NCBI GenBank assembly: GCA_038062675.1
Contig: JBBTWP010000001.1
Span: 48,920-112,919 of the forward strand
DNA length: 64,000 nucleotides
Reading direction: 5' to 3'
Origin: Patescibacteria group bacterium
GTDB lineage: Bacteria; Patescibacteriota; Minisyncoccia; Phycocordibacterales; UBA1550
The translations under genes and the position numbers were made by a program. The notes under the pieces are model-generated. The model was not told where the DNA came from, made no database searches, and saw only the letters and a list, made by a program, of their open reading frames with translations. Below, piece by piece: positions 2,751 through 53,892 of the stretch (within the stretch, counting starts at the first letter, position 1; every line of letters starts with the position of its first letter).

Positions 2751-5116
<2,366 letters not shown>

Positions 5117-5427: not shown

Positions 5428-5721
5428 GTGACGCCAGAAACTTTAAGGCTGATGTTGAAAAGAATAGAGAGAAAAAATATACCAATTGAAGTGCGAGTAA
5501 GAGCTCTCGTTGATCATCTTCATCAAAGTTTTTTAGGGCTTGCAGGTGAAGGTATGCAAGCGAGAACAGGAGAGGAGCTTCGAGAGATGTATGTCAAGGC
5601 CCGAAAGATTGCTAGGGTCGCCTTGCGACTCTATCGGTGGTTTCCTAACTCTGCAGATAAAGAAAGGAACGAACTTTTTCGGACTCTTTTTGATGCAGCG
5701 TCTCGCTCTATTAAACAATAA
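5428..5721 (+). CDS. hypothetical small helical protein (97 aa, GTG start)
   Basis: Own promoter and RBS; no recognisable motif. Confidence 0.45.
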   Translation: MTPETLRLMLKRIERKNIPIEVRVRALVDHLHQSFLGLAGEGMQARTGEELREMYVKARKIARVALRLYRWFPNSADKERNELFRTLFDAASRSIKQ

Positions 5722-8752: not shown

Positions 8753-9745
8753 ATGCTCGGTAATATTATCGGTGTATTGATAGCCATTGTCGCGCTTCTT
8801 GGTGCCGGCGTCGTTTCGTATACATATCTCGAGGAGCGATTTGGTCCCGCCGCGCCAACCGAAGTTGTGTTCAAGGTGGAAACAGAGACTCCCGTAGTGC
8901 AACCAAAAACCTCTGGGGGAAGCACTCAGGGTGTTGTTAATGTGCCGACAATACAAAAGAAGTCTGTTCCAGTGAAATCGAGCACACCCGCTCCAATTGC
9001 GGTTACGCCTCAGAAAGTTGTTGTTCCGGGGCCTTTGCGCGCGGAACCTGTCTCCACACCCTTGCCAAGTGTTATTTTGACGGCGCAGGGCGTGTTTGAG
9101 TATACCAATCGTGCACGCGCCGAAAATGGTGGGTTAGGCGCCTTGACGCATAATGAGACTCTCGACCGTATTGCCATGACGAAACTTCTCGATATGTTTT
9201 CAAAACAATATTTTGAACACATATCGCCGACAGGAGTCGGTCCGAGCGACCTTGCGAAAGCGGCAGGTTATGCGTATGTGGTTGTGGGTGAAAATTTAGC
9301 ACTGGGGAACTTTGCCAATGATTCAAAGTTGGTCGATGCATGGATGGCAAGCCCCGGGCATCGCGCAAATATCTTGAATCCGCGATATCAAGAGATTGGT
9401 ATTGCTGCAGGGAGAGGAATGTATGAAGGGCGCGAAACGTGGCTTGCGGTGCAAAGTTTTGGCATGCCTCTTTCTTCGTGTCCTGCCATTGACGCACAAA
9501 AGAAAATGCAAATTGAAACGAATAATGCCACCATTGCCACGATGCGCATAGATCTTGATGCGAAGAAGGTGCAGATTGATACTACGCCACCGAACAATCC
9601 AAAATACAATGTATATGTGGGTGAGTTTAATGTTATGGTAGTGCCATATAATGCTCTGATTGAATCGAGTCGGATTTTAGTCGAGCAGTATAACAGAGAA
9701 GTAAAGGCATTTAATGACTGCGCTGCTGGAACAGCTACAAGTTAA
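8753..9745 (+). CDS. CAP/SCP (PR-1-like) domain secreted protein with N-terminal anchor
   Basis: N-terminal TM helix; CAP motifs GHRANILNPRYQEIGIA and YAYVVVGENLALG. Confidence 0.7.
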   Translation: MLGNIIGVLIAIVALLGAGVVSYTYLEERFGPAAPTEVVFKVETETPVVQPKTSGGSTQGVVNVPTIQKKSVPVKSSTPAPIAVTPQKVVVPGPLRAEPVSTPLPSVILTAQGVFEYTNRARAENGGLGALTHNETLDRIAMTKLLDMFSKQYFEHISPTGVGPSDLAKAAGYAYVVVGENLALGNFANDSKLVDAWMASPGHRANILNPRYQEIGIAAGRGMYEGRETWLAVQSFGMPLSSCPAIDAQKKMQIETNNATIATMRIDLDAKKVQIDTTPPNNPKYNVYVGEFNVMVVPYNALIESSRILVEQYNREVKAFNDCAAGTATS

Positions 9746-17755: not shown

Positions 17756-17762
17756 AAAAACA

Positions 17763-17803
17763 CCCCCAAGACTTAGAGCAAGGGGGCGACCTGTTTTTGT
17801 TTA
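17763..17803 (+). terminator. weak intrinsic terminator
   Basis: ccccc...ggggg stem with a 14-nt loop, followed by tgtttttgttt. Confidence 0.35.
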
Positions 17804-17894
17804 GGTGGTAAGACGAGGTATCCCAGGACACCTCCCACTTGCAAGTCCTCAAGGCTGACTCTGCTTAAAAGTATACATATTTATAATTTTTTGT

Positions 17895-17927
17895 CAAGCA
17901 CCTTGAAGATGGCGATGTGATTGAGCT
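17895..17927 (+). repeat. degenerate in-frame copy of the ychF 3' end (33 bp)
   Basis: gaagatggcgatgtgattgagctttgtgtctag versus ychF 17723-17755 aaagacggcgatgtgattgagtttcgagtgtaa; 15-nt exact core, stop codon conserved. Confidence 0.7.
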
Positions 17928-17955
17928 TTGTGTCTAGGGGTGGTATAATTTTCGT

Positions 17956-35851: not shown

Positions 35852-35914
35852 AGGGCATTCTCCTTATTGTTTATGCACCTATCTCATGCCCGAGCATGCT
35901 ATAAGGTGTAAAAA

Positions 35915-35923
35915 GGGGGGGGG
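35915..35923 (+). repeat. G9 homopolymer abutting the -35 box
   Basis: aaaaGGGGGGGGGttgaca. Confidence 0.8.
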
Positions 35924-35952
35924 TTGACAAATGGTTTGCTAGGTGATATACT
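35924..35952 (+). promoter_or_regulatory. consensus sigma70 promoter TTGACA-17-TATACT
   Basis: Perfect -35 at 35924-35929, 17-nt spacer, TATACT at 35947-35952; about 120-nt leader to the ATG at 36074. Confidence 0.65.
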
Positions 35953-35989
35953 ATTAACAATCTATTAGGAGATCTCAATAGAGCACATT

Positions 35990-36022
35990 GCAGACGTTTG
36001 AGTTGTAATGTCTGTTCTTTTA
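35990..36022 (+). promoter_or_regulatory. terminator-like hairpin within the 5' leader (candidate attenuator)
   Basis: gcagacg...atgtctg stem followed by ttcttttaa. Confidence 0.35.
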
Positions 36023-36073
36023 AACCAAATCGACTGGCGATAAAATCAAAGGCGATATTGCGGAGGATTTACC

Positions 36074-46553: not shown

Positions 46554-47630
46554 ATGGCAAAAGATTATTACAAAATATTGGGGGTAGATAAAAAGGCAAG
46601 CGCGGACGAAATTAAAAAAGCGTTCCGTAAGCTCGCGCACCAGCATCACCCCGACAAAGGGGGTGATGAGAAGAAGTTCAAGGAAGCCAGCGAAGCGTAC
46701 CAAGTGCTCTCGGACGACAAAAAGCGTGCCTCGTATGATACGTATGGAGAAGCGGGGGCGCAAGGGTTTGGTGGGCACGGAGGAGGGCAGGGTTTCGATC
46801 CTTCAGGCTTCGGTGGTTTTAACACGCAGGGGTTTAGTGGCGATATTGACCTCAATGACATTTTCGGAGAGTTTTTTGGCGGTGGACGCCGAACGGCTCC
46901 TGAAAAGCGTCGTGGGCGAGATGTTTCTGTTGACCTTGAAGTTTCTTTTTCCGAAGCAATTTTCGGCGTGAAGCGCAAGGTGCTCATCACCAAAACTTCT
47001 TCTTGCACCACGTGTGATGGTACGGGCGCAAAGAGTGGTACTCCAATGAAGACCTGCGCCACCTGTGAAGGAAAGGGGAGTATTGAGGAAACAAAACGTT
47101 CGTTCTTGGGCGTCTTTTCACAAACACGCGAATGTTCGACATGTGCTGGTGTGGGGAAAATCCCTGAACAAAAATGTGCGGAATGCAAAGGACATGGCGT
47201 GCTTCGTCGTGAGAGTGAGCTTACCATTGAAATTCCAGCAGGTATCCAACATGGAGAGATGGTGCGCCTTTCTGGCGCGGGGGAGGCGATACAGAATGGA
47301 ACTTCGGGTGACTTGTATGTGAGAATCCGTGTCGCCCCACACAAAGTATTCCATCGTGAGGGACAAAATCTCGTTATGCATCTTTCAGTGAAATTCACTG
47401 ACGCTATTTTGGGCGCCGAATATCCAATAGAAACATTGGACGGCAAAATAGATTTGTCGATTCCGAAAGGGGTGTCGTCGGGTGAGGTTCTGCGTGTGCG
47501 CGGCAAGGGGGTGCCCATGGGCGCCAAGCATCGTGGTGACCTCCTCATAAAACTTGAAATAAAAACCCCCACCAAACTTTCCCGCCAAGCACTCAAGCTT
47601 GTTGAGGGGTTGAGAGGGGAGGGGGTGTAG
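46554..47630 (+). CDS. dnaJ: molecular chaperone DnaJ
   Basis: J-domain HPD motif; G/F region; four CxxCxGxG repeats. Confidence 0.95.
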
Positions 47631-47643
47631 GGGAACTAATGTT

Positions 47644-48711
47644 ATGGTAAAAAATTATGCACTTAAGTGGATTAAAGATATGACACCATACTCCCCTCCG
47701 CTGGGCGGTAGGTTGAATTTTTCTGGCGACTTACTTGATTTTAATGAGAGAGTGACGACGCCGTCAAAAAAAGTAACAACAGCACTCATCGCATTTTTTC
47801 GCAAAGGAAAGATACAGAGGTACCCAGAATATGCTGATTTGCAAGAGAAGATTTCTAAATATGCAAAGGTGCTTGCAAATCAGGTAATGATTACAAACGG
47901 TTCTGACCACGGCATTGACGTTATTTTTCGGACTTTTGTTGGTAAAAATGACACCATTGTAATACCTGCGCCAACTTTCCCAATGTTTATGCAGTACGCA
48001 CAGATGATAGGGTGTCGAGTTGCAAAAGTTCCCTACGAGAAAATAGACTTCAAGTTTCCCGCGGCAGAAATTCTTCAATTGCTTAAAAACAAGAATCCCA
48101 AGCTTATTATTATCTGTAATCCAAATAATCCAACAGGCAGTGTTATTTCAATGAAAGATATTGAGGTAATCGTACTAAAGGCTCCTGATTCGATTTTTAT
48201 GATAGACGAGGCATACTTTGAGTTTTCGGGGATAAGCGCAACCTCGCTTCTTAAGAAATTCCCGAACATCGTCATCGTCAGAACTTTCTCCAAGGCTTTT
48301 GGGCTTGCATCACTACGTATAGGATATGTTATCGCCAGCGAGCAACACATTGAAGAGATGATGAAAGTTCGTGGGCCATACGCCGTAAACATGGCTGCAC
48401 ATATTGCAGCAAATGCCGCGCTTGATGATATTGAGGATATGAAAATGTATGTGCAAGAAGTAATGACAAAAGCAAAACCTCTTCTCGAAACATTTTTCAA
48501 AAAAAATAGTATTCCATTTTATAAATCTGGAGCAAATTTTATACTCTTCGAACCCAAAAATAAACAAGAAGTATATGAGCATTTTAAAAAGAACGATATC
48601 TTAGTTCGCCCACAGCGCGCCCCAGAGATACAAGACATGCTTCGCGTGAGTATTGGAACCGTTAAGCAGATGAACCGATTTATTAAGGTATATTCACAAT
48701 TATTGGGTTAG
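47644..48711 (+). CDS. class I/II PLP-dependent aminotransferase, HisC-like
   Basis: NPNNPTG motif and RTFSKAFGLASLRIGY PLP-lysine motif. Confidence 0.8.
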   Translation: MVKNYALKWIKDMTPYSPPLGGRLNFSGDLLDFNERVTTPSKKVTTALIAFFRKGKIQRYPEYADLQEKISKYAKVLANQVMITNGSDHGIDVIFRTFVGKNDTIVIPAPTFPMFMQYAQMIGCRVAKVPYEKIDFKFPAAEILQLLKNKNPKLIIICNPNNPTGSVISMKDIEVIVLKAPDSIFMIDEAYFEFSGISATSLLKKFPNIVIVRTFSKAFGLASLRIGYVIASEQHIEEMMKVRGPYAVNMAAHIAANAALDDIEDMKMYVQEVMTKAKPLLETFFKKNSIPFYKSGANFILFEPKNKQEVYEHFKKNDILVRPQRAPEIQDMLRVSIGTVKQMNRFIKVYSQLLG

Positions 48712-48748
48712 AAAAATCGCTAACGAATGGGCACTTGACAAGTAGCCG

Positions 48749-48785
48749 CATAAAAAGGTATGCTCTTTACATGGTAGTAGCGCTC
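48749..48785 (+). promoter_or_regulatory. TTGACAAGT...CATAAAA promoter-like motif, copy 1
   Basis: cacttgacaagtagccgcataaaaaggtatgct; the same motif recurs at 50636 and 51235. Confidence 0.4.
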
Positions 48786-48875
48786 AAAAGCATCTTTGTC
48801 GGATATTCATATAGCTATTATAGCTCACGCAGATGAGACTTGTTTAAGGTGCTGAAAAAATAATTTCAACCTCTC

Positions 48876-48908
48876 AAACTGGCCTCATCCGAGGCCAGTT
48901 TGTTCTTT
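48876..48908 (+). terminator. rho-independent terminator
   Basis: aaactggcctc-atcc-gaggccagttt plus T-run. Confidence 0.8.
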
Positions 48909-48948
48909 ATACGATTAAAATCGGATTATAATTTATAGGAGGTGTGCC

Positions 48949-49641
48949 ATGTTTGTTGCGAACTCTCTTGATGGAGGTATTTGCAAAATATCAGATTGGT
49001 CCGAGCAGCTGGCTACGCTTACTCGGACTGCCTGGACAGGTAAAGATGGTAAATGTTATTTTCCTTACCTACCCCTTACTACAAAGGAACATTGGGAACA
49101 ATCTGTGCTTAAGCAATGGGAAAGTAATGAGATGGTTTCATGGGTTCTAGTTTCAGGCCATGGGCGAATCCTTGCTCACGTGGCTGTTGTTAAAAGGCAC
49201 GGATATCACGAGCTCGGTAGGTTTGTTGCTTATCCTGATAGTCCTAAAAATGCAGTCACCAGTCTTTGTTATGAAGCGATGAGCTACGTTTCAGTTATTG
49301 GAGACCCCGTACTTGTTGAAACGACTCAGGCTCACACTGCTTCGCAATTTATTTGCGAGAAGATTGGGCTCAGATTTGCGGGCATTGGATTTCTTTCCGT
49401 TGTTGATGATATATCGTGGGACATAATTTACTACGATAATCTCGATGTTGAAGATTTTGTTCCGCAAGAAGGTATTCTCGGGGACCCCCTCCGTAAACCA
49501 GTTGTTCGTCTACCAGAGCATAAAGACAGACTTGAGATAGTTCGCGGAATTCTTTCTTGTGAGCAGGGTGGAGATATTCCACCATCAAAATTTCATGTCT
49601 TGCCACATCGACTTGAAGTAGTTCGATTAATCGTTAGTTAA
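48949..49641 (+). CDS. hypothetical protein, possibly GNAT-fold N-domain
   Basis: Strong SD AGGAGGTG; GNAT-like segment ...HGYHELGRF...QFICEKIGLRFAGIG; weak call. Confidence 0.35.
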   Translation: MFVANSLDGGICKISDWSEQLATLTRTAWTGKDGKCYFPYLPLTTKEHWEQSVLKQWESNEMVSWVLVSGHGRILAHVAVVKRHGYHELGRFVAYPDSPKNAVTSLCYEAMSYVSVIGDPVLVETTQAHTASQFICEKIGLRFAGIGFLSVVDDISWDIIYYDNLDVEDFVPQEGILGDPLRKPVVRLPEHKDRLEIVRGILSCEQGGDIPPSKFHVLPHRLEVVRLIVS

Positions 49642-49671
49642 CTTGTTTTTTGGGTTAAAATATAGTATAAT

Positions 49672-49703
49672 AGCATGGAGATTCAAATCTCCATGCTATT
49701 TTT
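49672..49703 (+). terminator. hairpin plus T-run abutting the next start codon
   Basis: agcatggagat-tcaa-atctccatgct-attttt, then the ATG at 49704. Confidence 0.6.
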
Positions 49704-50639
49704 ATGACAGAAATTGAAGAATTATTGATTGAGCTTGTAAAGATACCATCTGTCTCTGGGCAGGAGAAAAAGGTCGGTGACTTTATTATTTCACAATTAG
49801 CTGATATAAAAGGTCTGAAAATTCAAAAACAGAAAGTTAGCAAGGATAGATTTAATTTAGTTGTTAAAAAGGGCAAGTCAAAAAAATGGCTAGTTGCTCA
49901 CATGGATACAGTTCCAGGAAACTTGCCTTGTCGTATAACAAAAGACAAAATATTTGGACGTGGTGCTTGTGACAATAAGCAAAGCATCGCTGCCTCCATT
50001 ATCCTTGCCCGCCAACTAGAAAATATTAATATTCTTTTTACGGTCGGAGAAGAGGTTGATTTTTCAGGAGCACAGAAGGCTTTCGAGAAAAGAACATGTG
50101 GAGACGCTGAGCTCGTAGTTGTGCAAGAACCTACTTGCTTCAAGATAATTACTGGTCAATGTGGCGTTATAGCTTTTTCAATTGAAACTACTGGACGAGA
50201 GCAACATTCGAGTCTGGATAAACCAAATAATGCTATTCATAAACTTTCTGAAGTTCTTTCCACCTTAATCAAGAAAAACTGGGCGGCTTTTAATATAGGA
50301 ATAATAGGAGGAGGGATTGCAGAAAATGTTGTTGCTGGTAGTGCTCGTGCGATGATCTCAGTTCGACCTCGTGATGCAAAAGAGCAAAAAGAAATTATGT
50401 TTGAACTAAAACGGCTACCTGCAAAAGTTGTTATTAATAAAAATATTCCCTCTTTTCGTTGTAATCTAGGTTATCCAGAGGCAATAGCCACTCATTTCTC
50501 TGAAATGGGATTTTTCAAGAATAGTATCCAATTTGGTGCTGGTGATATTCGGAATGCGCACACACAACAAGAATATATTCTGCGAAAAGATTTAAATATT
50601 TTACCAAAAAAATTATTAGAAATTTTATCGCGTCATTGA
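49704..50639 (+). CDS. M20 family metallopeptidase/deacylase (ArgE/DapE-like)
   Basis: VAHMDTVPG metal site and GRGACDNKQSIAA motif. Confidence 0.75.
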   Translation: MTEIEELLIELVKIPSVSGQEKKVGDFIISQLADIKGLKIQKQKVSKDRFNLVVKKGKSKKWLVAHMDTVPGNLPCRITKDKIFGRGACDNKQSIAASIILARQLENINILFTVGEEVDFSGAQKAFEKRTCGDAELVVVQEPTCFKIITGQCGVIAFSIETTGREQHSSLDKPNNAIHKLSEVLSTLIKKNWAAFNIGIIGGGIAENVVAGSARAMISVRPRDAKEQKEIMFELKRLPAKVVINKNIPSFRCNLGYPEAIATHFSEMGFFKNSIQFGAGDIRNAHTQQEYILRKDLNILPKKLLEILSRH

Positions 50640-50711
50640 CAAGTTCGTCATAAAATGTGAGGATAGCAGGGTGTTAAGGGTCAGTTCGTTAATGTTTTTA
50701 AGGAGATAAGC
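50629..50711 (+). promoter_or_regulatory. duplicated promoter/leader copy A (TTGACAAGT..CATAAAATGTGAG..AATGTTTTTAAGGAGATA)
   Basis: About 75% identical to 51228-51312, including the identical RBS region. Confidence 0.55.
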
Positions 50712-51146
50712 ATGAAGGTATTATTTATTTGCAAAAATAATCAATTCCGTAGCCAAATGGCTGCGTCAATATACAATCAGATAACGGGAACGGAAGATGC
50801 CGATTCTGCTGGTACATATGTCGGTTCTGTTGCTGTGCCAGAGGGGACTGTTATTGAGGGTTACTTTCGCACCCCCGACTTCTTTGAACTTATGGAGGAG
50901 AATGGGATGAACATAAGGGGCAATCGTACAAAAAAGCTTTTACCCGAAATGATCGAAAGTGCCAGCATTGTTGTTTCGATTGTGCAAGAACCGTTTATTC
51001 CAGATTTTCTACGTAACAATGAAAAAGTAATATGGTGGGGAATAGCCGATCCTTCCTTTGCTACACGCGAGGTCTCAGAAAAAACATACAGTGAGATAAA
51101 AAGCTTGGTTGAACAACTCGTTTCATCTGAGGGTGCGAGTCTCTAA
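50712..51146 (+). CDS. low-molecular-weight phosphotyrosine phosphatase / ArsC-like
   Basis: P-loop CKNNQFRS (CX5R-S) at the N-terminus. Confidence 0.75.
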   Translation: MKVLFICKNNQFRSQMAASIYNQITGTEDADSAGTYVGSVAVPEGTVIEGYFRTPDFFELMEENGMNIRGNRTKKLLPEMIESASIVVSIVQEPFIPDFLRNNEKVIWWGIADPSFATREVSEKTYSEIKSLVEQLVSSEGASL

Positions 51147-51182
51147 TAAAAACGCGGAATATTTCCGAAGTTCTTTTCAGAA

Positions 51183-51209
51183 GCCAGCAGAAATGCTGGT
51201 TTCTTTTTA
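51183..51209 (+). terminator. rho-independent terminator
   Basis: ccagca-gaaa-tgctgg plus tttcttttt. Confidence 0.6.
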
Positions 51210-51227
51210 TACATTGGAGCCAAAATT

Positions 51228-51312
51228 TTACCTATTGACAAGTTGAACATAAAATGTGAGTATTGCGTAGGAGTCGGAGTTATTTTAAGCAATGTTTTTA
51301 AAGGAGATAGAC
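51228..51312 (+). promoter_or_regulatory. duplicated promoter/leader copy B
   Basis: Shares ttgacaagtt, cataaaatgtgag and aatgtttttaaaggagata with copy A. Confidence 0.55.
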
Positions 51313-52560
51313 ATGAAGAAACTTGATATATTCGACAATTTAGTAGGTCGTGGCTTTGTAAAACAGTGTTCAAACGAGACTGCTTTACGCGAGCTGTTCG
51401 GTAAAGGACCGTTGGTCTTTTACGCTGGATTTGATCCAACAGCCGACAGTCTTCATGTGGGCAGTTTGGTTCCAATAATGGCGATGGCCCACATCCAGAG
51501 AGCTGGGCATACTCCGATATGTATTGTTGGGGGAGGCACGGCATTAATTGGTGACCCAAGCGGCAAAACAGAAACACGTCGCATGTTGACCGTAAATGAG
51601 ATCGACCACAACAAGGAAGGTCTCTTTGGGCAACTGCAGCGGTACTTGTCGTTTGGCGAAGGGAAAGGAATGATACTCAATAATGCCGACTGGCTTGTTG
51701 GGTTGAAATATATCGAATTCCTTCGAGACATTGGCCGTTACTTTAAGGTGAATGAAATGATACGAGTAGAATCGTATCGCCTTCGTCTTGAACGGCAGGA
51801 AGGATTGTCGTTTATCGAGTTTAACTATCAGCTACTTCAAGCGTATGACTTTTTGGAACTTCATGATCGTTACGGTTGTGTGTTGCAGATTGGCGGTGAC
51901 GATCAATGGGGGAATATGGTCGCTGGTACTGGGTTAATTCGGCAAGTTCGAAAGGCCGAGGCTCATGTTTTGACCTTCCCATTGCTTGAAACAGCAAACG
52001 GAAGGAAAATGGGCAAGACTGAGAATGGCACCATTTGGCTTGATGCAACAAAAACTGCGCCATATGACTTTTATCAGTACTGGAGAAATACTGATGACCG
52101 GGATGTAATTAAGTTTTTAAAGCTTTTTACGTTCTTGTCCTCGGAGGAAATAAGTCAGTACGAGAAGTTGAGTGGTGCGGAGCTTAAGCCCGCAAAAGAG
52201 CGCCTTGCATTTGAGGCTACAAAAATTACCCATGGAGAGCAGGCAGCAAAGGATTCAGCAGAGGCTGCTTCTCAGTTATTCGGTAATTCTAGTGGTTTGA
52301 ATTCAAACGCGGTGCCAACTGTTGAAATTAGGCAAGCCGTTCTTGCTCAGGGTGTCTCTGTTCCTGACTTGTTCAGGCTTGCTGGGCTAGTAAAAGGTAC
52401 TTCTGAGGCTCGGCGCCTTGCAGACCAAGGAGGTGCTTATGTTAATGAAAAGCGCGTTACGTCTGATCAGATGTTCTATAAATCTGATATGGTTGATGGT
52501 GTGCTACTTCTCCGACAAGGGAAAAAGCACTACTGTCGTGTGGTACTAGCTCTTGAATAG
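51313..52560 (+). CDS. tyrS: tyrosyl-tRNA synthetase
   Basis: HVGS(L) HIGH variant, KMGKT KMSKS motif, S4-like C-terminus. Confidence 0.9.
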   Translation: MKKLDIFDNLVGRGFVKQCSNETALRELFGKGPLVFYAGFDPTADSLHVGSLVPIMAMAHIQRAGHTPICIVGGGTALIGDPSGKTETRRMLTVNEIDHNKEGLFGQLQRYLSFGEGKGMILNNADWLVGLKYIEFLRDIGRYFKVNEMIRVESYRLRLERQEGLSFIEFNYQLLQAYDFLELHDRYGCVLQIGGDDQWGNMVAGTGLIRQVRKAEAHVLTFPLLETANGRKMGKTENGTIWLDATKTAPYDFYQYWRNTDDRDVIKFLKLFTFLSSEEISQYEKLSGAELKPAKERLAFEATKITHGEQAAKDSAEAASQLFGNSSGLNSNAVPTVEIRQAVLAQGVSVPDLFRLAGLVKGTSEARRLADQGGAYVNEKRVTSDQMFYKSDMVDGVLLLRQGKKHYCRVVLALE

Positions 52561-52569
52561 AGGTGCCAA

Positions 52570-53451
52570 ATGAGGAAAATAAAAGTTGGATATCTGGGGC
52601 CTGGTACTAATACTTTTGGGTACCAGGCCCTCCAGAAGTTTTTTGCAGGGAAAGGCTTCAAAAACATCGAGGCGGTGGCATTTACAAACCACAGCGAAGT
52701 GTGTTTAGCGGTCGGCAATATGGAAGTTGACTACGGTGTTGTTGCGATTGAGAATGTTATTGACGGGGTTGTGGCGGAGACTATCCGCGCTATTGAAAGT
52801 GTTGACAGTCACCTCGGCCTAAAAATCTGGGGCGAAGTCATCCTGTCGATAGAACTATTCTACATGAGCAAGAGTGGGGATGAATCACTTGTAAAAAAAC
52901 TCCTCTCTCATCCGACAGCTATTGGGCAATGCCGAAAGTTGGTATCCATGCTTCAAGAGCGTGGAATTCCAATCGAGGTACAGCCCTCGACATCTCGTGG
53001 TGCTGAGCTTGCATCAAGTGATTCTGAGGTTGCAGCACTTGCTTCCAAAGTTGCCCTAAGGAACTTTGGACTTAAGCTTATTCGCAAAGAGTCTGTTACT
53101 GACTACAAGAACAGTGCTACACGGTTCTGGGTTCTTGGAAAGGAGCATGCACGACTTGGCGAGGATACGGCATTAAAGTTTAAAACATGCTTCCTTGCCA
53201 ACCTTGAGCAAACAGCATCAGGAGTGCTTCATAAGACGCTTGGAGTTTTTGCAGAAAAAGGGATTAGCGTTCTCCTTGTGTACCCTAGCCCTATTTTGGG
53301 GAAAAAATGGGAATACACGTTTGTTCTTGAAGTAGGCGGTCATGTTTCGGAATCACGCATGATTGAGGCGTGGGAAGATTTTCGAAAACTTGGCATATCG
53401 CTCTTACCCCTGCGTTTCTTGGGGTCTTATCTTGATACAACATCAGGATGA
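52570..53451 (+). CDS. pheA: prephenate dehydratase with ACT domain
   Basis: PDT domain (VGYLGPGTNTFGYQA) plus C-terminal ACT. Confidence 0.85.
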   Translation: MRKIKVGYLGPGTNTFGYQALQKFFAGKGFKNIEAVAFTNHSEVCLAVGNMEVDYGVVAIENVIDGVVAETIRAIESVDSHLGLKIWGEVILSIELFYMSKSGDESLVKKLLSHPTAIGQCRKLVSMLQERGIPIEVQPSTSRGAELASSDSEVAALASKVALRNFGLKLIRKESVTDYKNSATRFWVLGKEHARLGEDTALKFKTCFLANLEQTASGVLHKTLGVFAEKGISVLLVYPSPILGKKWEYTFVLEVGGHVSESRMIEAWEDFRKLGISLLPLRFLGSYLDTTSG

Positions 53452-53454
53452 AAA

Positions 53455-53487
53455 AAACCGGGTTGAAATATACCCGGTTTTTCTTTT
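53455..53487 (+). terminator. rho-independent terminator
   Basis: aaccgggt-tgaaatat-acccggtt plus T5. Confidence 0.8.
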
Positions 53488-53522
53488 GCTAGTTAACCTC
53501 CTGTTTTGAGGTGTATTTTGAC

Positions 53523-53892
53523 TGTACTATTCACGGGCGCAGGGGAAGCTATTCAGAATGGCACGGCAGGTGACTTGTATGTCAGAATTCACGTCGCCCC
53601 ACATAAAGTATTCCATCGTGAGGGACAAAATCTCGTTATGCATCTTTCAGTGAAATTCACTGACGCTATTTTGGGCGCCGAATATCCAATAGAAACATTG
53701 GACGGCAAAATAGATTTGTCGATTCCGAAAGGGGTGTCGTCGGGTGAGGTTCTGCGTGTGCGCGGCAAAGGGGTGCCCATGGGCGCCAAGCACCGTGGCG
53801 ACCTCCTTATAAAGCTTGAAATAAAAACCCCCACCAAACTTTCCCGCCAAGCACTCAAGCTTGTTGAAGAACTGCGGGGGGAAGGTGTATAA
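53523..53892 (+). pseudogene. truncated duplicate of the dnaJ 3' end (C-terminal domain fragment)
   Basis: About 95% nt identity to 47270-47630, including a ~170-nt identical core; no J-domain or zinc finger. Confidence 0.85.

Follow-up and report, generated by a model that had tools for sequence, protein, structure and literature searches.

The classical regulators of tyrosine genes are TyrR and T-boxes, and in Firmicutes tyrS is classically under T-box control. In Actinobacteria, leader peptides are often translated from leaderless transcripts. The Patescibacteria (candidate phyla radiation, CPR) are usually regarded as regulation-poor and auxotrophic. A survey of Actinobacteria describes tyrosine genes as T-box-regulated and does not name attenuators for them (PMC1262725), and the aroR-aroF attenuator of Corynebacterium glutamicum (Neshat et al. 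2014) encodes a leader peptide, AroR, that contains Phe-Tyr-Phe and responds to Phe and not to Tyr (PMC11802643). No report of a Tyr-codon attenuator, or of any attenuator in Patescibacteria, was found in the open-access literature. Here we describe a candidate Tyr-codon attenuator, and the promoters related to it, in a 64-kb stretch of DNA (the window, meaning the whole stretch analysed) that belongs to a 265-kb contig of a Patescibacteria genome from Hainich groundwater (ENA ERZ1292624, 0.1 µm fraction).

The explanation that we favour, and hold to be fairly probable as a whole, is that a tyrosine/aromatic gene cluster in the window carries three sigma-70-type promoters, two of which are paralogous, while the third (site 1) drives the Tyr attenuator. 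Sites 2 and 3 precede a gene for a phosphatase resembling low-molecular-weight protein tyrosine phosphatases (LMW-PTP, here PTP) and tyrS, respectively. Comparisons were made with the loci of relatives, designated by L-numbers (L087, L088, L090, L091, L094, L095, L100, L102, L103) and graded by identity of their tyrosyl-tRNA synthetase (TyrRS) to that of the window. The close clade is made up of the window and L087, L088, L090, L091, L094 and L095, whose TyrRS sequences are 78-89% identical to the window's; L103 (66%), L102 (64%) and L100 (62%) are farther relatives. Site-1 comparisons cover eight lineages, namely the seven of the close clade and L103. The features of site 1 are as follows.

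48735-48764, + strand: site-1 promoter, with -35 TTGACA at 48735-48740, an 18-bp spacer containing CATAAAAAGG, and putative -10 TATGCT at 48759-48764
48771-48836, + strand: leader open reading frame (ORF) of 21 codons plus TGA, encoding MVVALKSIFVGYSYSYYSSRR, a frame conserved in eight lineages
48804-48821, + strand: run of Tyr codons (codons 12, 14, 16 and 17, all TAT)
48833-48888, + strand: predicted antiterminator, a long imperfect hairpin in which A-UGA-GACUUGUUU, including the stop codon, pairs with AAACUGGCCUCAU, the terminator 5' strand
48875-48910, + strand: intrinsic terminator from the terminator scan, a 12-bp GC-rich stem CAAACTGGCCTC/GAGGCCAGTTTG (48875-48902) followed by TTCTTTAT

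Every one of the seven close-clade lineages has the leader ORF; the N-termini vary, and conservation of the peptide is concentrated in the Tyr/Ser run. The pattern Y-x-Y-x-Y-Y or a close variant of it occurs in all eight lineages, in ORFs of 20-32 codons (the longest being the 32-codon version of L103, ending in ...AYHYYIQNLPRLV), and the Ser codons vary synonymously among lineages (TCA/TCC/TCG, AGC/AGT). Among the 417 small ORFs of the window, the leader ORF alone has at least four Tyr codons within six. A longer ORF beginning at the TTG of TTGACA was considered and rejected, as stop codons interrupt it in L088 and L094. The geometry of the promoter is kept in seven lineages; TTGACA itself is found in six of the seven orthologs, with TTGACG in L090. 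The promoter scan calls TTGACA-18 bp-TATGCT with 10 of 12 matches, TATGCT agreeing with TATAAT at four of six positions. A conserved ATG follows the -10 by 6-7 nt in six of the seven close lineages (6 nt in the window) and by 9 nt in L090, the same distance as in the TGGTATAAT-N6-9-ATG promoters of the window. The site-1 transcript is therefore probably leaderless, with a predicted start at or next to the ATG.

Two mutually exclusive structures can be drawn downstream of the Tyr run. In one of them, a segment made up of the stop codon and the 10 nt after it (UGAGACUUGUUU) pairs with the terminator's 5' half (AAACUGGCCUCA), and the resulting antiterminator encloses a small conserved inner hairpin at 48847-48872. 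The region 48765-48910 folds with z = -2.5. In folds with a masked ribosome, whose footprint is assumed to reach 11 nt beyond the A-site codon, a ribosome placed on the Tyr run leaves the antiterminator as the minimum-energy fold of the nascent transcript (short of the full terminator) in 8/8 lineages, with energies between -6.6 and -20 kcal/mol in the close clade (-12.8 or lower in six of its seven lineages) and of -17.4 in L103. With the ribosome on the stop codon and the full transcript available, the terminator alone folds. A ribosome on the last YY is modelled to end at about the stop codon, which lies inside the 5' strand of the antiterminator in all eight lineages, including L103 with its differing ORF length and stop position. 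On the alignment of the eight sequences, the antiterminator has 90.9% of cells paired, as against 26-51% in slid registers, with three compensatory pairs; the terminator state (terminator, inner hairpin and P1) has 93% paired, with four compensatory pairs, two of them in the terminator helix. Over both states, slid registers give 24-51% against 91-93%, and the covariation measures are reached by 4-12 of 500 shuffles.

We suggest that the site-1 element is probably a ribosome-mediated attenuator tuned to tyrosine, in which both the stalling and the response to tyrosine are predicted. When Tyr-tRNA is scarce, the ribosome would stall on the Tyr run, leaving the stop codon and GACUUGUUU free to pair with the 5' strand of the terminator; the antiterminator would form and RNA polymerase would continue into the genes beyond. 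With Tyr-tRNA in plentiful supply, the ribosome would reach the stop codon and cover that segment, so that the terminator (48875-48902) and U-tract would form and transcription would end. The position of the next gene bears on this model. Its ribosome-binding site (RBS) lies 17-34 nt after the terminator, with no evident promoter between them, in six of the seven ORF-carrying relatives, and the next gene in these therefore depends, it would appear, on read-through; in L103 the gap from the terminator to the next gene is about 35 nt and contains TTGACA. The cluster context (a HisC-type aminotransferase, tyrS and prephenate dehydratase) fits tyrosine/aromatic metabolism, though the genes immediately behind the element vary. 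There is one copy of the attenuator per locus. A covariance-model search of 784 kb returned no copies beyond the eight known lineages and L100, and a scan of viral contigs gave no match. The lineage was not recovered among those GTDB representatives that were searched with the attenuator core; the search returned two Bacteroidota matches, with unlike flanks, which are taken as chance.

Several observations weigh against this interpretation. The covariation is modest and comes from eight related sequences, and the percentage paired is reached by 64 and 25 of 500 shuffles for the two states. The full-length transcript thermodynamically favours the terminator in most lineages, so that antitermination must be kinetic. 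The genes directly downstream are not those of tyrosine biosynthesis and they differ by lineage, the slot behind the element being occupied by genes for a GNAT-family protein and an M20-family protein in the window, an ATP-grasp protein and a beta-aspartyl peptidase in L087, and an AAA_33 kinase in other relatives. L100 carries at 4594-4701 a related two-hairpin element (E = 0.0014) with no Tyr ORF and no U-tract, and L102 has at about 5590-5665 a looser resemblance, seen by eye only, before an AAA_33 kinase gene. The hairpin RNA may have another role in L100 and L102. The element of L100 precedes the gene of a PPDK_N protein and, by our own reading, has apparent compensatory changes.

These hairpins without a Tyr ORF, together with the variable downstream genes, are also what might be expected if the site-1 ORF and hairpins formed the gene of a small protein, or a small RNA that carries a terminator of its own, with a product acting elsewhere. 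Pointing the same way, a 24-nt segment (TGAGACTTGTTTAAGGTGCTGAAA) is invariant in six of the seven close-clade lineages (not in L095), which is more than pairing requires. Yet conservation of the peptide is centred on the Tyr/Ser run while its N-terminus is free to vary, the stop codon always falls within the 5' strand of the antiterminator, even in L103, and the RBS of the next gene is less than 40 nt past the terminator in all seven ORF-carrying relatives, six of them without an evident promoter and L103 with its TTGACA. We consider such a product acting elsewhere unlikely, and a cis-acting attenuator the better account of site 1.

The three promoters are connected by a motif, TTGACAAGT-N{4,5}-CATAAAA, that has exactly three matches in the 64-kb window, at 48735-48755 (site 1), 50636-50655 (site 2) and 51235-51254 (site 3), all intergenic and on the + strand, and none in 100 dinucleotide-preserving shuffles. 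Allowing one mismatch, TTGACAAGT alone is found 19 times against 20.9 expected, which is no excess, so the signal resides in the exact nonamer combined with CATAAAA. The earlier note, which drew attention to this recurrence in three upstream regions, is borne out on that point; its positions for sites 2 and 3 (50636 and 51235) are correct, while its 48749 for site 1 is 14 nt too high, the true position being 48735. That note had named as the alternative a motif that is just the generic -35 of the organism. This is not the case, as there are only five intergenic TTGACA in the 64 kb and most promoters are of another type, TGGTATAAT, without a recognisable -35. Extended -10-like motifs, TGGTA(T/G/C)NNT, end 6-9 nt before annotated ATG codons that have no Shine-Dalgarno (SD) sequence, for example at the genes at 8753, 11693, 17956, 23653 and 36836. 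Since TGGTATAAT, the commonest promoter type of the window, sits 15-18 nt ahead of the ATG, its placement suggests that many genes of this CPR genome are leaderless.

The motif copies are probably the -35 and distal spacer of sigma-70-type promoters, with -10 elements at sites 2 and 3 that are predicted from position and conservation. The duplicated unit that carries sites 2 and 3 is found twice in the window.

50616-50717, + strand: copy A, putative promoter and 5' untranslated region (5'UTR) before LMW-PTP, from repeat blocks and alignment; -35 TTGACA at 50636-50641, 17-bp spacer with TG at -15/-14, -10 GAGGAT at 50659-50664, SD GGAG at 50702-50705, ATG at 50712
51217-51318, + strand: copy B, putatively ancestral promoter and 5'UTR of tyrS, from seven tyrS orthologs; -35 TTGACA at 51235-51240, 17-bp spacer, -10 GAGTAT at 51258-51263, SD GGAG at 51303-51306, ATG at 51313

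All three sites have an exact TTGACA, which is 100% conserved across the nine tyrS/PTP copies of seven lineages. GAGGAT and GAGTAT lie exactly 17 bp after it at sites 2 and 3, with TG at -15/-14, and TTGACA-17-GAGNAT with A-11 and T-7 is found in 9/9 of the tyrS/PTP copies. CATAAAA can therefore be assigned to the spacer, given that hexamers with A-11 and T-7 occur at the canonical 17-18 bp; in each of the two promoter families its position is 3 nt ahead of the -10 hexamer. Conservation among tyrS orthologs, block by block, is 100% for the -35, 55% for the proximal spacer, 81% for TAAAATGTG, 70% for the -10, 46% for the mid-leader and 65% for the SD region, and is thus patterned as a promoter and a ribosome-binding site. 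Against the assignment, the -10 hexamers of sites 2 and 3 match TATAAT at only three of six positions and are uncalled by the scanner, which near site 3 calls TTTACC-17-TAAAAT instead. The spacer block TAAAATGTG, moreover, is more conserved than the proposed -10, which a plain promoter explains incompletely.

The same observations can be turned towards another promoter, in which TAAAAT (TAAAAA at site 1) is the true -10 and the invariant TTGACA is either the site of a regulator or a component of promoters of an unusual class. TAAAAT matches TATAAT at five of six positions, nearly all tyrS copies retain its A-11 and T-7, and it is this hexamer that the scanner pairs at 17 bp with TTTACC at site 3, where GAGKAT has its poor match. 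In the orthologs, however, there is neither a conserved -35 nor a TG where a -10 at TAAAAT would call for one (the hexamers in that position read TTCTTT, ATGCGC, AAGAGC and AATGAT), whereas the fully conserved TTGACA is exactly 17 bp from a hexamer with A-11 and T-7 in every one of the nine copies. At site 1, the 5'UTR would be about 10 nt long and lack an SD sequence if TAAAAA were the -10, while TATGCT gives the usual 6-9 nt of the window between -10 and ATG. A -10 at TAAAAT is thus improbable, and the 17-18 bp promoters are preferred. The earlier note had pointed out that 9-10 nt between TTGACA and TAAAAT is too short for a paired -10, and we agree; the difficulty arises from taking TAAAAT as the -10, and no unusual element is needed to explain the spacing when the hexamers TATGCT, GAGGAT and GAGTAT are present at 17-18 bp.

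The conservation of the spacer block is a reason for considering an operator in addition to these promoters. Here (C/T)ATAAAA(A/T)G(G/T), with TTGACA(AGT), would be the predicted site of a tyrosine- or aromatic-responsive factor co-regulating the leader-peptide unit, PTP and tyrS. The distance of the block from the -10 hexamer, which it precedes by 3 nt, is identical in two independent tyrosine-linked promoter families; it outranks the -10 in the conservation of tyrS orthologs (81% to 70%); TTGACA-N6-12-A[TC]AAAA is almost confined to these promoters in about 110 kb of relatives' loci; and none of the window's other TTGACA or TGGTATAAT promoters has the block. In L091, a gene for a TrpR-like YerC/YecD protein adjoins the cluster. 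On the other side, the three sites have no dyad or direct-repeat symmetry in common, and the TyrR box (TGTAAA-N6-TTTACA) has no match within three mismatches at any of them and genome-wide counts below chance. A search of the 64-kb window for a TrpR-like (YerC/YecD) gene gave none. No more than two independent promoter families have the block in common, which is A-rich in AT-rich DNA and adjoins the TG/GG of the extended -10, so that promoter function alone can impose its conservation, and at site 1 it is degraded in L090 and L094 while the promoter persists. An operator of this kind is doubtful, and sigma-70-type promoters are taken as the working assignment. The YerC/YecD gene of L091 (168-482, - strand; Pfam Trp_repressor, 6e-20) is located about 1 kb upstream of the aminotransferase gene.

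The leaders of PTP and tyrS (about 80 nt) are, to judge by their alignment, true paralogs. A gapless repeat search finds a 33-nt block of 85% identity over the promoter (50635-50667 and 51234-51266) and a 44-nt block of 70% identity around the RBS and start codon (50695-50738 and 51296-51339). Global alignment of the upstream regions of about 100 nt scores 83.5 for PTP and tyrS, compared with a maximum of 30 for tyrS and 54 other upstream regions. Identity is 0.71 from TTGACA to ATG and 0.68 over a longer stretch, and upstream of the -35 the similarity continues for about 20 nt (AAATTTTA), reaching the final codons of the M20 gene, whose stop codon the -35 of copy A overlaps. The duplication noticed in the earlier note is therefore real and its identical RBS region, AATGTTTTTAA(A)GGAGATA, is common to both leaders as claimed; the identity of about 75% over 85 bp that it gave is slightly too high.

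The distribution of the two copies suggests how they arose. The tyrS promoter is conserved in all six close relatives, and the PTP-side copy is present only in the window and in L087, its closest relative; in the other five, PTP has an upstream region unrelated to this copy, behind a terminator and the gene of an AAA_33 kinase. Derived states (GGATAGC) are common to the two PTP copies, of the window and of L087, and paralog identity (0.71-0.80) is about that of window and L087 orthologs (0.79-0.80), from which it appears that the copy was made in their common ancestor. On this distribution, the PTP copy is a lineage-specific duplication and the tyrS copy is ancestral. The unit copied would have been about 100 bp, composed of an AT-rich upstream stretch, TTGACA, a 17-bp spacer with TG, a weak GAGKAT, some 43 nt of unstructured 5'UTR and a strong RBS (GGAG); the copying would have coincided with replacement of the kinase gene upstream of PTP, which would thereby have inherited constitutive signals like those of tyrS and not a special RNA switch. 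The co-regulation of a phosphatase and tyrS, which at first seemed unexpected, can thus be accounted for by a recent copy of the tyrS promoter and 5'UTR.

A cis-acting RNA switch in these 85-nt leaders, whether T-box-like or a riboswitch, is most improbable. It could be thought of on the grounds that the leaders are duplicated and partly conserved, and that T-boxes are the classical regulators of tyrS in Firmicutes; a leader-RNA element had also been put forward at the outset, with folding as the way to look for it. Single folds of the PTP and tyrS 5'UTRs, however, are no better than shuffles (z = +0.1 to +0.8), RNAalifold gives no consensus pairs (0) on eight homologous leaders, and Rfam returns nothing relevant and no T-box (RF00230), either for the whole window with gathering thresholds or for 48600-51400 with E<=10. 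The transcribed leader is also only about 43 nt long and has no terminator, and its middle is its least conserved part (46%). The duplicated leader is probably ordinary, a promoter and 5'UTR copied before a neighbouring gene during local gene replacement, and this explanation closes the reading as an unusually spaced promoter or RNA switch.

Around the motif sites, the genes of the window are on one strand throughout (+), in the following order.

+ strand: dnaK and dnaJ, the first genes of the local cluster order, ahead of the aminotransferase
47644-48711, + strand: HisC-type aminotransferase (Pfam/NCBIfam)
48949-49641, + strand: GNAT-family acetyltransferase of 230 aa, a CPR-wide family whose homologs carry PF13302 and GNAT names
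49704-50639, + strand: M20 ArgE/DapE-type deacylase (Pfam and NCBIfam)
50712-51146, + strand: LMW-PTP-like phosphatase (Pfam LMWPc, 5e-9), with a C-X5-R-S P-loop, a single Cys and a DP loop
51179-51204, + strand: intrinsic terminator after the PTP gene from the terminator scan, an 11-bp stem followed by TTTTTAT
51313-52560, + strand: tyrS, in an operon with prephenate dehydratase
52570-53451, + strand: prephenate dehydratase (PDT), the second gene of the tyrS operon
53453-53482, + strand: terminator of the tyrS-PDT operon

The phosphatase has only weak sub-threshold matches to ArsC (Pfam/NCBIfam), and the terminator at 51179-51204 sets its gene apart from the tyrS unit. The order LMWPc-tyrS-PDT is kept in six relatives, on six distinct contigs, whose TyrRS sequences have 80-89% identity. 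The aminotransferase gene and the variable gene slot are just upstream in L087, L090, L091 and L095, with other genes there in L088 and L094. Synteny is absent in L098 and L105, which are more distant TyrRS relatives, and in a metagenome scan (JGI set) with TyrRS the best relatives are at most 57% identical, too far for leader comparison. PDB sequence searches with the 230-aa protein and the AAA_33 kinase returned nothing informative, and no tRNA or tmRNA genes were found in the window.

A direct repeat of at least 300 bp and 94% identity (47274-47573 and 53536-53835, with a spacing of 6262 bp) flanks the entire block from the aminotransferase to prephenate dehydratase, and a truncated DnaJ_C ORF at 53506-53892 is a second copy of the dnaJ 3' end. 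As these dnaJ-derived repeats bracket the whole block, they suggest insertion or rearrangement of the tyrosine/aromatic cluster, as one unit, between dnaJ and an acyltransferase gene. In L100, L102 and L103, an HD-domain hydrolase occupies the LMW-PTP slot just upstream of tyrS, and in L102 and L103 an AAA_33 kinase gene is found ahead of the hydrolase gene. The pairing of a kinase and a phosphohydrolase beside tyrS-PDT thus recurs in distant relatives, with non-homologous phosphatases.

Three other sites in the window were also noticed. Between the GNAT and M20 genes (49642-49703), TTGTTT-17 bp-TATAAT is followed by a perfect 10-bp hairpin (GCATGGAGAT/ATCTCCATGC), by TATTTTT and immediately by the M20 ATG without an SD sequence. 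This hairpin, for which Rfam gives only weak ctRNA-like matches (E = 0.14), could terminate the upstream unit, form a hairpin at the 5' end of the M20 mRNA, or do both. In a 200-bp gap on the - strand (17756-17955), a promoter-like TTGACA-16 bp-TATACT at 17892 is followed by about 110 nt ending in a G-run and TTTTT; this unit may be a small RNA, and its Rfam matches are sub-threshold noise only. The only other + strand intergenic TTGACA, in TTGACA-17 bp-TATACT at 35924 (within 35852-36073), precedes a leader of about 140 nt with a terminator-like hairpin (CAGAC...GTCTG TTCTTTT), before a gene of 207 aa. It may be another cis-regulatory leader, and neither the leader nor the 207-aa gene has an Rfam or Pfam match.

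As far as the open-access literature shows, a Tyr-codon leader peptide and attenuators of Patescibacteria appear to be previously undescribed. If confirmed, the site-1 element would be a simple cis-sensor of Tyr-tRNA charging in organisms that are not culturable alone, and would point to the genes that are switched on when tyrosine runs short. A broader proposal is that the Tyr-codon attenuator, on a leaderless transcript, gates swappable scavenging or modifying genes beside tyrS, and that an operator (TTGACAAGT...CATAAAAWG) common to the attenuator and the tyrS/PTP promoters joins them in a small tyrosine regulon; this proposal as a whole is quite doubtful.

Compared with described systems, the tyrS leader resembles the T-box leader of Bacillus subtilis tyrS in being a predicted regulatory region upstream of tyrS. 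It differs in its length (about 43 nt against 200-300) and in having no Stem I/specifier, T-box sequence, terminator or Rfam match. The three promoters agree with sigma-70 promoters that have an extended -10 (TGn) in their TTGACA, in the 17-18 bp spacers and A-11/T-7 that go with the proposed -10 hexamers, and in the TG at -15/-14 of the tyrS/PTP copies, and depart from them in the poor 3/6 hexamers at sites 2 and 3 and in an A-tract, ATAAAA, at -21 to -16 that is conserved beyond the standard model.

The site-1 element has no sequence or Rfam relationship (E<=10) to known leaders, and its likeness to the attenuators of Escherichia coli (pheL-pheA, pheM-pheST and trpL) is one of design. These also have a short ORF with a run of the sensed codons, followed by an intrinsic terminator, an antiterminator that uses the 5' strand of the terminator, and a stop codon placed so that an unstalled ribosome blocks the antiterminator. 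As with pheST, the element is in a cluster that includes the cognate aminoacyl-tRNA synthetase. Unlike the E. coli attenuators, the codons to be sensed are Tyr, the transcript is probably leaderless, the host belongs to the Patescibacteria/CPR, and the genes under control are a swappable slot and not a biosynthetic operon. With aroR-aroF of C. glutamicum, the element shares ribosome-mediated attenuation, a connection to aromatic amino-acid metabolism and Tyr in the leader peptide. It is distinguished from AroR by its run of Y-x-Y-x-Y-Y without Phe or Trp, and for this reason tyrosine should be the signal.

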